From an uncultured Thermococci archaeon (GTDB taxonomy: Archaea; Methanobacteriota_B; Thermococci; Thermococcales; Thermococcaceae): DNA of 30,537 bases. The notes under the pieces are model-generated. The model did no database searches. It was not told the DNA's origin and saw only the letters and a list, made by a program, of their open reading frames with translations. The position numbers and the translations under genes are program-made. Numbering within the stretch: the first letter of the stretch is position 1; each line of letters opens with the position of its first letter. Below are positions 12,083 through 22,166 of the stretch, one piece after another. The DNA lies in NCBI GenBank assembly GCA_964615185.1, contig CAZTOS010000021.1:1-30537 (forward strand), read 5' to 3'.

Positions 12083-12160
12083 TACCTTATTCTCCACAAC
12101 ACATAATAGATGGCGATATTCTTATTAATTTCATTTAGGTATTACATTTTGGTGATTGTA

Positions 12161-12403
12161 ATGGTAACTGTTACAAGGAAATACCAAGTAACAATTCCCA
12201 AGGAGGTTAGGGAGGCACTCAATATAAAGGCTGGTGATGAGGTTGTCTTTGTCAGGACTAAGGAAGGGTATGTGATTATGAAATTTGAAGACCTTCTTGA
12301 AGAAATGACTGAGCTTTCAAAGGACATTGATGAGACCATTGAAGAGATGAGAGAAGGGCTTAGTAAAATTTTCAGGGGGAAAACAAATGAAGATAGTTCT
12401 TGA
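12161..12403 (+). CDS. AbrB/MazE/SpoVT-family antitoxin (VapB-type)
   Basis: VTRKYQVTIPKEVREALNIKAGDEV AbrB signature; GGTGA RBS before ATG 12161; overlaps the PIN gene. Confidence 0.9.
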   Translation: MVTVTRKYQVTIPKEVREALNIKAGDEVVFVRTKEGYVIMKFEDLLEEMTELSKDIDETIEEMREGLSKIFRGKTNEDSS

Positions 12404-12680
12404 CACAAACGTTCTTCATGACAAAGAATTCCTCAAATGGCTTAAGAAAAGTCCCCACGAGCCTATACTGAGTGCAGTGGCGTATACAGAATACCTTTAT
12501 CATCATTCAAAAAAGCGTGGTAGTTATGAGGAAGGTAAAGCCTATGTTGATGCTTTTCTTAATGTCTTGGGAATAAGAGTTTATCCATTTGATGATGAGT
12601 GTGCCAAGATTGTTGTGAAAAATGCTTGGGATTTTTCAAAAAACGCAAGAGACTACATGATAGGGGTCATTCCTACGTGA
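12387..12680 (+). pseudogene. vapC: VapC PIN-domain toxin, 3'-truncated by the mobile element
   Basis: IVLDTNVL...AYTEY...RDYMIG, then the frame runs into element DNA (VIPT*). The final PIN strand with the T-x-D motif is missing. Confidence 0.8.
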
Positions 12681-12862
12681 GTTTTCGTGAGTTCACGTAG
12701 AGATTCATCCCCCGGGATTCTGCGGGTGCCCAGACTTAGACCGTCCTGCCCACTCTCCTTCTCTTTCAGCCCACTACGGCGGAACGGGTCGCCCGAACAC
12801 CCGCAGGGTTCAGCCAGCCCTCCACCTCGCCTAGCTCACCGACTTCACCAGACTGGCATCAC
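12645..12862 (-). ncRNA. Candidate TnpB omegaRNA transcribed divergently from tnpB; the last ~19 nt (host flank) would be the guide
   Basis: GC-rich non-coding tract with nested stems; several extend through G-U pairs on the minus strand. TTAAATA TATA at 12895-12889; reads out through the element end. Confidence 0.55.
12677..12692 (+). repeat. Left subterminal repeat GTGAGTTTTCGTGAGT (two GTGAGT units, 10-bp period)
   Basis: Exact reverse complement of 14073-14088. Confidence 0.9.
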
Positions 12863-12872
12863 AACCAAAAAC

Positions 12873-12898
12873 TATTTAAGTAAACAAGTATTTAAGTA
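12873..12898. promoter_or_regulatory. Back-to-back TATA elements / TATTTAAGTA direct repeat, candidate RHH operator
   Basis: TATTTAAGTA at 12873-12882 and 12889-12898; TATA-like on both strands, between the RNA and the RHH gene. Confidence 0.55.
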
Positions 12899-12912
12899 TT
12901 TTGGTGAATACA

Positions 12913-13074
12913 ATGGGAGTCATAACTGTAAAAATCCCTGATGATTTGGAAGTCAAATTCAGAAAGAAAATCCTCGACGTTTACGGTGTCAAAAAAGGAG
13001 CCCTCGGAAAAGCCATAACGGAGGCAATTGAATTATGGCTCGAAAAACACGAAAAATCCGAAGAGCGGAAGTGA
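12913..13074 (+). CDS. Ribbon-helix-helix (CopG/MetJ-like) protein, 53 aa; absent from the ORF track
   Basis: [61 protein letters not shown] at 12903-12907; its stop overlaps the tnpB GTG start (GTGA). Confidence 0.82.
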   Translation: MGVITVKIPDDLEVKFRKKILDVYGVKKGALGKAITEAIELWLEKHEKSEERK

Positions 13075-14111
13075 ATTACATCACCATTAAAACAAGGCTC
13101 GAACCGGAAACACAGGAGGATTACTTGAAACTTGCCCTTTTGACTGAGAGGTTCAAAAAAGCCACCAAACTGGCGATAAGGCTTCAACTCAAGGGCGTTA
13201 GGAAGATTGAGGGCGTAAGGGAAGTTTCCCGACTGGTTCTAAACAACTGGTGGTATTCTGATAGTGCGTGGGATTATGCGAAAATGCTGTTAAAAGGAGC
13301 AAGGCAAAACGGTGGGAATCCAAGGCACATTCACTTGAAGTCAAAATTCCTCATCAGCAAACCAAAGGAGAACGAAAATGGGAATAGGAACGTGAGGATT
13401 GAAGGGTTAAGCGTCAGAATACGCTCAAATAGGGAGTGGTTGAAATTTAAGTTAAGAACTGCAGAGAAGTTCCTTCCAGTTATCTTCGACGCTCAAAAGT
13501 TCAAATACGGTGCCCAAGTTGTTCTGCGGAATGGAAAAGTTTACCTGCACATCCAAGTGCCCTTTGAGATTTATCTGAAACGTCTCGGAAAGACCACCAA
13601 GGGTGGGCTGTATGCCGGTTTCGACCTGAACTCCGACAGGGTGAATATGGTCATTCTCGACGGTAACGGTATTATCAGGGACGTCAAGATCGAACACTTC
13701 TCCGAAGTCAATTCTCCGGGGTTCCCAAAGGAGAAGGCGAGGGGTTTGAGGTTGATGGCCATCGCCCGCCTACTGGATTATGCCTACCACCACGGCGTGA
13801 GGGTCGTGTTTTTCGAGGATTTGAGCTGGATTAAAAGGAAAAACGGGAAGATTACAAATTCAAAGAGGGGAAATCGGAAGGCGTCGAATTTCGCCAAGAG
13901 AGAGCTCCTTGAACACGGGGTTGTTATGGCATTGAAGAGAGGATTCGACGTGTATCTGGTTAACCCGTCCGGGTCTTCGAAATTGGGGAAGGAACTGGCT
14001 CAAGGACTGGGATTGGATATTCACACCGCATCGGCGTTCGTTATCGGATGGTGGGGCGTTAATTCCCTGAAGACTCACGAAAACTCACAAAAAGAGGAAC
14101 AGTTTGGGTAG
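13071..14111 (+). CDS. tnpB: TnpB-family RNA-guided RuvC protein lacking the Zn finger
   Basis: RuvC-I AGFDLN, Ruv[16 protein letters not shown] and RuvC-III-like [11 protein letters not shown]. Likely GTG start at 13071; an in-frame ATG exists at 13035. Confidence 0.85.
14073..14088 (+). repeat. Right subterminal repeat ACTCACGAAAACTCAC
   Basis: Exact reverse complement of 12677-12692; lies within the tnpB 3' end. Confidence 0.9.
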
Positions 14112-14449
14112 GCGGCATGGTGACGCTCAAGAAGGAGAAGAACATCTTAGCCTTAGCCGCCGTTCCGGTTGCGACTCCCCTTATAGCAGGGCTTGCTGCA
14201 ATAACAACTGCAATCACCCTGACAGCGGAGTATGGGATAAAGGTCTCCGCCTCAGCTATCTTGATAGCGATTCTGCTAACTGCTCTGCTGATGTTTGTAA
14301 CGCTCTACATGATTGAGAACATTAAGAAAACGACTTTAGGTGTCTTTATTAGGATAATTGGTCTCTTCACGATGGCAATTGGTGCACAAATGATGGTTGA
14401 AGGTGTTGGTGGAATTTTCCTTAGACTGCTCCAAAGCTCATCTGCCTGA
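14111..14449 (+). pseudogene. marC: MarC-family membrane protein, 5'-truncated (C-terminal half only)
   Basis: [16 protein letters not shown]...[18 protein letters not shown]arC C-terminal motifs. The N-terminal half is absent, and the conserved AGP reads AGL. Confidence 0.78.
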
Positions 14450-22109: not shown

Positions 22110-22166
22110 GGAATGATGAGTCTGGAGCCCCCTGAAATCAGTGATGAAGTTTCGCGGGTCTGACCG
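22110..22166 (+). ncRNA. C/D-box guide sRNA
   Basis: ATGATGA (C, 22113-22119), GTCTGGAGCCCC, CTGA (D', 22132-22135), GTGATGA (C', 22141-22147), AGTTTCGCGGGT, CTGA (D, 22160-22163); AT-rich TATA-like tract upstream. Confidence 0.9.

Follow-up and report, generated by a model that had tools for sequence, protein, structure and literature searches.

Organization of the element

The 30,537-nt contig CAZTOS010000021.1 of an uncultured Thermococci archaeon (Thermococcaceae; assembly GCA_964615185.1), referred to here at its full length as the window, carries an element of roughly 1.45 kb that contains a small ribbon-helix-helix (RHH)-like gene, a tnpB-like gene and, ahead of both, a G+C-rich non-coding stretch. 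An initial annotation of the window had proposed that this stretch encodes an inverted omegaRNA, that is, a guide RNA lying upstream of tnpB and transcribed away from it. The comparative evidence presented below supports that interpretation. The features in question are the following; genomes, contigs and loci are cited by our own labels (G, C and L).

12663..12868, minus strand: structured RNA scaffold, ~206 nt (match to covariance model R1 of 230.5 bits at G000:C21:12663-12868; consensus folding; strand test)
12643..12662, minus strand: putative guide, length nominal; the flank 3' of the scaffold, UAUCAUGUAGUCUCUUGCG, placed here by inference, as homology among copies stops at 12663
12867..12898, no strand assigned: intergenic control region; a 16-nt unit, made of an A-rich stretch and a TATA-like box (TATTTAAG), occurs here as two direct repeats
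12913..13074, plus strand: small RHH-like gene from the open reading frame (ORF) list, 53 aa from ATG, its stop overlapping the GTG of the tnpB-like gene
13071..14111, plus strand: gene for a TnpB-like RuvC nuclease, 346 aa from GTG, without zinc finger (TIGR01765, alignment, AlphaFold2 model and Foldseek)
14111..14114, plus strand: target motif GGCG resembling a transposon-adjacent motif (TAM), 5'-CGCC on the RNA-sense strand (right-end alignments, three empty sites)
12677..12692, no strand assigned: left arm, within the RNA's terminal hairpin (loop and 3' stem), of a perfect inverted repeat of 16 nt
14073..14088, no strand assigned: right arm of the inverted repeat, subterminal, 16 nt, inside the 3' end of tnpB

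The element spans 12663-14110 or 12665-14112, the register of the right junction being ambiguous by 2 nt. When the region was compared by BLAST with loci of 12 other family genomes, homology extended from 12663 to 14113/4 and the flanks were unrelated in every locus; the aligned ends break at /GGGGTC on the left (16 ends) and at ...TA/GGC on the right (18 ends), where the slash marks the junction. The 3' end of the scaffold, GACCCC (12668-12663), is also the left end of the element, and the tnpB stop codon TAG (14109-14111) adjoins the right junction. There is one copy in the window genome and there are one or two in each of the other Thermococcaceae that carry the element. The best reading of this layout is a single-copy transposable element of the IS200/IS605 kind whose RNA gene faces away from its protein genes.

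A structured RNA on the minus strand

The structure was analyzed with an alignment (A1) of 15 Thermococcaceae copies, taken on the minus strand. RNAalifold finds seven helices with 56 pairs in A1 at -79.1 kcal/mol. Helices 1-3 build a 5' domain and helices 4-5 a long arm; at the 3' end follows a terminal hairpin whose closing pairs are GGGG/CCCC. Every stem that had been named on this strand from the window alone is present at its predicted position and is recovered from the 15 copies: GCCAGUCU 12857-12850 with GGGCUGGC 12820-12813 in the scaffold, CUGCGGGUG 12806-12798 with CACCCGCAG 12728-12720 at the base of the long arm, the inner arm extensions UUCGGGC/GUCUGGG and GACC.GUUC.GCC/GGC.GGAC.GGUC, and the terminal hairpin CUACGUGA/UCACGUAG. 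The proposed terminus GACCCC was also correct, but its last base is 12663 and not 12665, 2 nt further out than had been annotated.

Across the 15 copies, 96.8% of the pair cells are paired, and none of 500 shuffles reaches this fraction, the 25 double-change cells or the observed covariation score; these figures lean toward the structure, as it was derived from the same alignment in which the pairs were counted and the copies are related. Pairs with a compensatory change number nine, a count reached by 54 of 500 shuffles, and the observed count of further pair types is reached by 362 of 500. Because the copies are related, the other three covariation measures overstate the case. Registers slid from the true one are all less than 50% paired.

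The strand of the RNA does not depend on these figures. Standard pairs occupy 813 of 840 cells when the alignment is read as minus-strand RNA versus 698 of 840 when it is read as plus-strand RNA, and the minus-strand reading contains 135 G-U cells and 20 A-C cells. Because the G-U cells exceed the A-C cells 135 to 20, the strand is fixed as minus, and this test is independent of the bias that arises from taking the structure from the same alignment. Five of the G-U pairs are invariant or nearly so. When each strand was folded independently, RNAalifold gave -77.7 kcal/mol for the minus strand versus -47.1 kcal/mol for the plus strand, the minus strand being the more stable in 15 of 15 copies. 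The helix with the most non-standard cells is the terminal hairpin (91.5% paired), and many of those cells would be G-U on the plus strand, which bears out an early caveat that one outer stem pairs better on that strand.

The non-coding stretch is 83-90% identical among copies versus 77-84% for the whole element, and its G+C content reaches 53-65% at positions 12650-12850 in a genome of ~40%. An 84-aa plus-strand ORF across the G+C-rich stretch (12687-12941) is ruled out by 2-nt indels among the copies. No Rfam 15 family matches the region at the gathering threshold, and a permissive search returned only chance-level matches (E of at least 1.4). Two outcomes had been predicted for aligned homologues, and both are seen: a conserved scaffold shows covariation only when read as minus-strand RNA, and conservation stops sharply at GACCCC, beyond which the flank is variable. 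At the level of sequence comparison, a roughly 206-nt structured RNA encoded on the minus strand at 12663-12868 is confirmed.

Distribution of the RNA and its association with tnpB

A covariance model, R1, was built from the Thermococcaceae copies and run over 97 Thermococcaceae genomes; it matches in 13, always at element loci. Fifteen matches exceed 200 bits, of which 13 lie beside the protein gene or its remains, one is cut by a contig end and one is solo. Among 69 loci with relatives of the protein in other archaea, R1 finds 14 full-model matches at E ≤ 0.01, each of them ahead of the protein gene and in reverse orientation to it. Among their sources are Archaeoglobaceae (85 and 83 bits), unclassified metagenome-assembled genomes, Baldrarchaeota, Desulfurococcales and Sulfolobales. 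The segments kept across lineages are UGAAGUC...GGUGGAG, GGGGAAUGA and the terminal GACCCC. The position upstream of and opposite to tnpB, first read from the window alone, holds in the same relative form across archaeal phyla.

Fragments of the element also occur by themselves. In G006 a solo 256-nt copy of the RNA gene and control region (L045 1501-1756; G006:C1:258692-258899 plus the adjoining promoter) is 100% identical to the full element of the same genome, has its own, different flank and ends at ...CAATGG/CG, the point at which the RHH gene would start; it may represent either an additional guide acting in trans or the product of a deletion. Solo remnants of the tnpB side, ~85-200 nt long and still followed by GGC, are found at L014, L015, L016 and L017 (G087, G085, G084 and G010, respectively) in genomes otherwise devoid of the element; the flank is the same in L015 and L016.

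Insertion sites and the target motif

Three comparisons of filled with empty sites define where the element inserts. G089, a genome of the same genus, has its element in reverse orientation at a point where the window has none (12066/7); here the window reads CCAGTGCC/GGTGTCATC and G089 reads CCAGTGCC(CAAAAT...GACCCC)GGTTTCATC. Conversely, the uninterrupted vapC of G089 gives the insertion point of the window element, ...AACGCGCC/TATCATGTAGTC in the RNA sense, and in this gene the sequence of the window's putative guide is preceded by GCC. Finally, CTGTCGCTC/GGCGTTCGACG is uninterrupted in G063 and G066 and is split exactly by the copy in G022. Each comparison places the element 3' of a GCC, read on the RNA-sense strand, and sets the downstream target directly against the RNA's 3' end, with no sequence duplicated. 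GGC follows the right end in 15 of 18 Thermococcaceae rows (14 of 17 when the two with a common flank are taken as one) and belongs to the target, because it is present in all three empty sites. A TAM had been predicted at the junction opposite the RNA; a conserved minus-strand GCC is what we find there, and the empty sites establish that it is target-derived. The element is clearly mobile: its flanks differ at every locus, two species of one genus each have the empty site of the other's copy, and four copies occur in a single Sulfolobales genome.

The same borders recur in more distant copies. Sulfolobales genomes contain several copies of ~1.5 kb, and six that were compared start with AGGGGTC (...GACCCC on the RNA strand) and end at ...GAC/GGCR, with GGC in six of six. 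Four copies of the Archaeoglobaceae type begin with GGGGTC, and their three aligned right ends read GTAAC/GGCR, with GGC in three of three. GACCCC is the scaffold boundary in Thermococcaceae, in Sulfolobales and in the copies of the Archaeoglobaceae type. This geometry is that of IS200/IS605 elements, where one motif serves both for insertion and as TAM and the guide is taken from the flank past the RNA.

In the window, the minus-strand flank beyond the scaffold is UAUCAUGUAGUCUCUUGCG followed by U6, as had been annotated, and is antisense to the truncated vapC. This antisense relation of the putative guide to an interrupted toxin gene looks incidental, because the flanks differ at every locus. 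The gene belongs to a vapB (MazE/AbrB-like, PF04014) and vapC (PIN) pair at 12110-12680 in which the insertion has truncated vapC; the PIN profile is cut at position 96 of 120, and on the other side of the element marC keeps its last 97 profile positions. Relative to G089 (L039 456-890), the window has lost 434 bp between two GGCG tetramers, and with them the 3'-terminal part of vapC together with the first half of marC. This deletion starts exactly at the tnpB-side junction and is a microhomology deletion anchored at the TAM-side end.

Control region

The two TATTTAAG/TTAAATA boxes of the control region lie at 12873-12880 and 12889-12896, where the initial annotation had noted a single TTAAATA box upstream of the RNA, and the region is nearly invariant in the 15 copies. 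We infer that it is an interleaved pair of divergent archaeal promoters. The usual spacing from an archaeal TATA box to the start of transcription is ~26 nt; by this measure, transcription of the minus-strand RNA from the distal TATA-like box would begin near 12866, immediately before helix 1, and that of the operon from the proximal box near 12902, with a GGTGA ribosome-binding motif downstream. The repeats are likely the RHH operator, by analogy with a bacterial case discussed below, and the RHH protein would repress the shared control region.

The protein genes

The 346-aa protein matches TIGR01765, the N-terminal domain of TnpB, in NCBIfam (75.1 bits versus a cut-off of 47.25), and guided_TnpB with 28.3 bits, below its cut-off of 100. 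Pfam returned no family at E ≤ 0.1, OrfB_Zn_ribbon being unmatched, and every homologue of the protein carries the precomputed Pfam family PF27229. The homologue search finds the family confined to hyperthermophilic archaea, with 189 representatives matching at E ≤ 0.001 in a library of 1.84 billion proteins; among the carriers of close homologues are Thermococcus indicus, T. henrietii, T. aciditolerans and Pyrococcus kukulkanii. D185, E249, D316 and H318 are invariant in an alignment (A2) of 19 diverse sequences, RuvC-III reads D316-x-H318-T-A-S-A in 19 of 19, and residues 250-316 of A2 contain no Cys pairs for a C4 zinc finger between RuvC-II and RuvC-III. A sequence search of the PDB with the protein gave only spurious adiponectin matches and was set aside. 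The AlphaFold2 model (pLDDT 86.7, pTM 0.69) has 92 PDB matches at E ≤ 0.001 in Foldseek, among them AsCas12f (5e-10), Cas12k, the TnpB structures 8h1j and 8exa (~3e-7) and Fanzor structures. As predicted by this model, the protein has a TnpB/Cas12 fold with wedge, helical and split RuvC domains.

The RHH-like protein of the window has no Pfam match better than E 0.14; its orthologues give sub-threshold matches to RHH_3 and RHH_6 (E 6e-4 to 0.02). At more distant loci a small AbrB/MazE-like or RHH-like gene occupies the same position.

A probable guide RNA transcribed away from its nuclease

We consider it probable, from the sequence evidence and the geometry of the insertions, that the RNA is a divergently transcribed, omega-type guide RNA of the TnpB-like nuclease. 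What the comparisons establish, and what this reading builds on, is the structure, strand and conservation of the RNA, its co-occurrence with the genes, the exact ends of the element, its GCC-specific and duplication-free insertion and the TnpB/Cas12 fold. In the mechanism that we propose, the RHH-like and TnpB-like genes would be transcribed rightwards from the central control region and the ~206-nt RNA leftwards, on the minus strand, from near 12866. Because the scaffold's GACCCC ends exactly at the left end of the element, a read-through transcript would carry ~20 nt of host flank at its 3' end. The protein would bind this RNA, and the host-flank tail would serve as the guide. In TnpB omegaRNAs and Cas12 CRISPR RNAs (crRNAs) the guide is likewise at the 3' end. 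Since the element inserts immediately 3' of 5'-GCC, a GCC would lie directly 5' of the guide-matched sequence in the vacant site, where it could act as the TAM. The TnpB-like nuclease would then recognize and cut the vacant site by means of its RNA guide, and the transposon would be restored.

Several observations weigh against this proposal, in addition to the two covariation counts that shuffled alignments also reach. The folding signal of the single sequence is modest: in the window alone, 12663-12868 gives z -2.29 for minus-strand folding, equalled by 3 of 200 shuffles, versus -1.37 on the plus strand (19 of 200), and the 256 nt of the initial annotation give z -1.15 (28 of 200) on the minus strand versus -1.58 (14 of 200) on the plus strand. 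R1 is a narrow model, and 55 of the 69 distant loci are unmatched at E ≤ 0.01. A second Sulfolobales subgroup (L080, L095 and L107; Stygiolobus and Metallosphaera) begins with AGAGTTC..., ends at ...AGAC/AAT or TAC and has GGC at its far end in none of three copies; their target motif may be a different one. It is not certain that the protein is an active nuclease, because RuvC-III is altered, with H318 for the Asp of the family, and the zinc finger is missing; a study of TnpB diversity by Altae-Tran et al. (PMC10691335) describes such an Asp-to-His change as a rearranged site that is possibly still active. Finally, the homing logic would operate here without its usual partner, because no transposase is encoded in the element according to the ORF list, and Y1 TnpA (PF01797), although present in 28 of 97 genomes, is found in only three of the ten that have a full-length copy.

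The window genome does contain a TnpA, in a separate classical IS200/IS605 unit (L126 2452-4181; G000:C16) that consists of a gene for a 144-aa Y1 TnpA followed by one for a 404-aa TnpB. This unit has no R1 match and no similarity to the RNA. As for mobilization of the element in trans by the TnpA unit, the two have no R1-like RNA in common, and most carrier genomes are without TnpA.

Other explanations of the conserved RNA have to be considered. One holds that it is real and belongs to the RHH-TnpB module but does not read the flank as a guide, being instead an antitoxin-like or regulatory RNA with a fixed end, or a scaffold trimmed at GACCCC. The authors who described the clade favored a toxin-antitoxin role and called it non-mobile (PMC10691335), Thermococcaceae hold only one or two copies each, and by eye the flanks beyond the RNA contain no consistent T-run terminator. 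The 3' end of the scaffold, however, coincides to the base with the end of a mobile element in three lineages, and a target motif lies at the other end, a geometry for which a fixed-end RNA has no need. With differing flanks, reciprocal empty sites and four copies in one Sulfolobales genome, the mobility of the element is also at odds with this explanation, which we regard as improbable.

The structure could also reside in DNA, as a set of single-stranded hairpins at the transposon end that a trans-acting transposase would recognize. The ends of IS200/IS605 elements do function as single-stranded DNA hairpins. In our data the terminal hairpin folds as DNA too (z -2.36 at the RNA-side end), a 16-nt inverted repeat links the two ends of the element, and the hairpin loop is inverted, flip versus flop, in three of 15 copies (L037, L040 and L044) while the stem is kept. 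The flipped loop suggests that the hairpin also behaves as a DNA palindrome, and in that measure it too tells against a purely RNA-based account. The conserved structure, however, extends over ~200 nt, far more than an end hairpin; it draws on the 135 G-U cells and the nearly invariant G-U pairs, and a conserved TATA-like box lies upstream of it at the right distance. Moreover, the tnpB-side end has no DNA hairpin (z +1.17 and +1.07 on the two strands). A structure that is DNA in place of RNA seems to us quite unlikely.

The least probable of these alternatives, with very little in its favor overall, is a canonical guide RNA on the plus strand that would overlap the 3' end of tnpB and read the right flank, leaving the G+C-rich RNA as an unrelated passenger. 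That arrangement is the rule for TnpB (PMC10691335). Solo right-end remnants of ~90 nt persist in four genomes (L014-L017), and the 3' end of tnpB holds the same 16 nt as the terminal hairpin of the RNA. This 16-nt sequence, common to the tnpB mRNA and the hairpin, is a perfect inverted repeat in the window; in other copies only ~11 nt of it, as judged by eye, are common to both. The last 215 nt of tnpB, however, fold on the plus strand to a mere -22.3 kcal/mol in RNAalifold with a covariation term of -0.04, nothing comparable to the conserved and covarying minus-strand region; the G+C content of this 3' region is, for a hyperthermophile structured RNA, ordinary, and the conserved GGC on the right stands in the place of a TAM rather than of a guide. 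The initial annotation had also argued that tnpB leaves no room downstream for such an RNA. The stop codon does abut the junction, but the argument fails, as canonical omegaRNAs overlap the tnpB coding sequence. An IscB-like arrangement, in which a plus-strand RNA would carry a 5' guide, is ruled out by the strand test.

If the divergent guide RNA is borne out, the coupling of nuclease and guide transcript can be broken, and is broken in a large archaeal clade. To our knowledge, characterized TnpB and Fanzor proteins and Cas12 ancestors always take their guide from the 3' end of the nuclease transcript or from a downstream array. This coupling underlies current views of omegaRNA processing and of the origin of CRISPR arrays. 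A divergent guide would also shift the reading of the clade from a toxin-antitoxin module to a mobile homing element, and in practical terms it would offer a defined RNA scaffold, GCC as a candidate TAM, and a hyperthermophilic nuclease of 346 residues.

Relation to known systems

The window protein and its RHH partner fit the RHH/MazE-TnpB group that Altae-Tran et al. (2023; PMC10691335) placed in TnpB clade RIIIr-4, with an RHH or AbrB/MazE gene upstream. The features in common are an archaeal (euryarchaeal and crenarchaeal) and patchy distribution, an RHH or AbrB/MazE gene directly upstream, the lack of a C4 zinc finger and His for Asp in RuvC-III, where H318 is invariant in our sequences. 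The article called the clade non-mobile, proposed a toxin-antitoxin role and expected the guide in a long untranslated 3' region. Here, in contrast, the stop codon abuts the end of the element and leaves no long 3' untranslated region, a conserved RNA is encoded opposite to the operon and 5' of it, and the insertions are site-specific with matching empty sites. We found no upstream or antisense RNA described for this clade in the literature, which for PMC10691335 excludes Figure 5A and the supplementary text; one supplementary table of that article mentions neither RHH nor MazE. Our candidate, if correct, would supply the guide RNA that the article tentatively placed in the 3' untranslated region.

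The OMEGA system of IS200/IS605 elements, exemplified by ISDra2 TnpB and its omegaRNA, is also similar. Both have a TnpB/Cas12f fold, a scaffold at the transposon end with the flank in the 3' guide position, and insertion without duplication 3' of a short fixed motif that lies 5' of the guide-matched sequence. IS200/IS605 elements also lack terminal inverted repeats, as does the present element apart from its subterminal 16-nt repeat. Unlike in ISDra2-type systems, the RNA gene here neither overlaps tnpB nor is co-oriented with it, and would have its own promoter facing the opposite direction. The element differs further in having no tnpA, no tnpB-side hairpin, no zinc finger and an altered RuvC-III, and in a 3-nt, G+C-rich motif, GCC, in place of a T-rich penta- or tetranucleotide.

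An RNA gene upstream of the nuclease gene is also found with IscB omegaRNA and with the trans-activating CRISPR RNA (tracrRNA) of Cas9. The IscB omegaRNA, however, is co-oriented with its nuclease gene and has a 5' guide (PMC10691335), whereas the RNA described here is on the opposite strand and has its candidate guide in the 3' position, as in TnpB and Cas12 systems.

Arc (RHH) repressors have been reported in bacterial IS605 elements in the preprint of Moon et al. (2026; doi 10.64898/2026.09.24.754181), which describes a tiny RHH protein in a TnpB-bearing element, beside an intergenic region that contains repeated motifs and a divergent pair of promoters. The present control region is similar, with the difference that those elements are bacterial and their divergent genes are protein genes (tnpA/arc versus tnpB), whereas here the divergent partner is an RNA gene. 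By this analogy, the archaeal RHH protein would bind the two 16-nt repeats.

The RNA also resembles the kink-turn (K-turn) RNAs of archaea that are bound by L7Ae (box C/D and H/ACA small RNAs (sRNAs) and RNase P RNA) in that two places have a sequence compatible with the K-turn signature, namely a canonical stem, a 3-nt bulge and tandem G-A/A-G pairs. By eye, and with the usual consensus as a guide, one candidate signature is formed in the 5' domain by GCCAGUCU-GGU-GA-AGUC with GGUG-GA-GGGCUGGC, and the other at the 3' end by GGGG-AAU-GA... with ...GA-CCCC. Their UGA and GA positions are invariant in the 15 copies, and Sulfolobales copies read GGGG-AAU-GA-GGAC...GUCC-GA-CCCC, so that both strands of the non-canonical stem differ there but the signature persists. 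The differences are that the present RNA has no box C/D or H/ACA architecture and no Rfam match. These sequence signatures suggest L7Ae binding and raise the idea that a host K-turn protein could be part of an RNA-guided DNA nuclease.

Extending these comparisons to the clade as a whole, we advance a more tentative proposal, to which we give less than even chances. The RHH/MazE-TnpB clade may be a GCC-targeting family of IS200/IS605-like transposons in which the guide RNA is an independent, divergent gene with two K-turns, TnpB, RNA and L7Ae would form a particle suited to 80-100 degrees C, and the RHH protein would set the ratio of guide to nuclease. Solo copies of the RNA would then be trans-acting guides and a step towards an array.

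Two further RNA genes were identified in the window: a box C/D sRNA at 22111-22165 on the plus strand (Rfam sR23, 58.7 bits) and a tRNA gene at 733-807 on the minus strand (53.5 bits).

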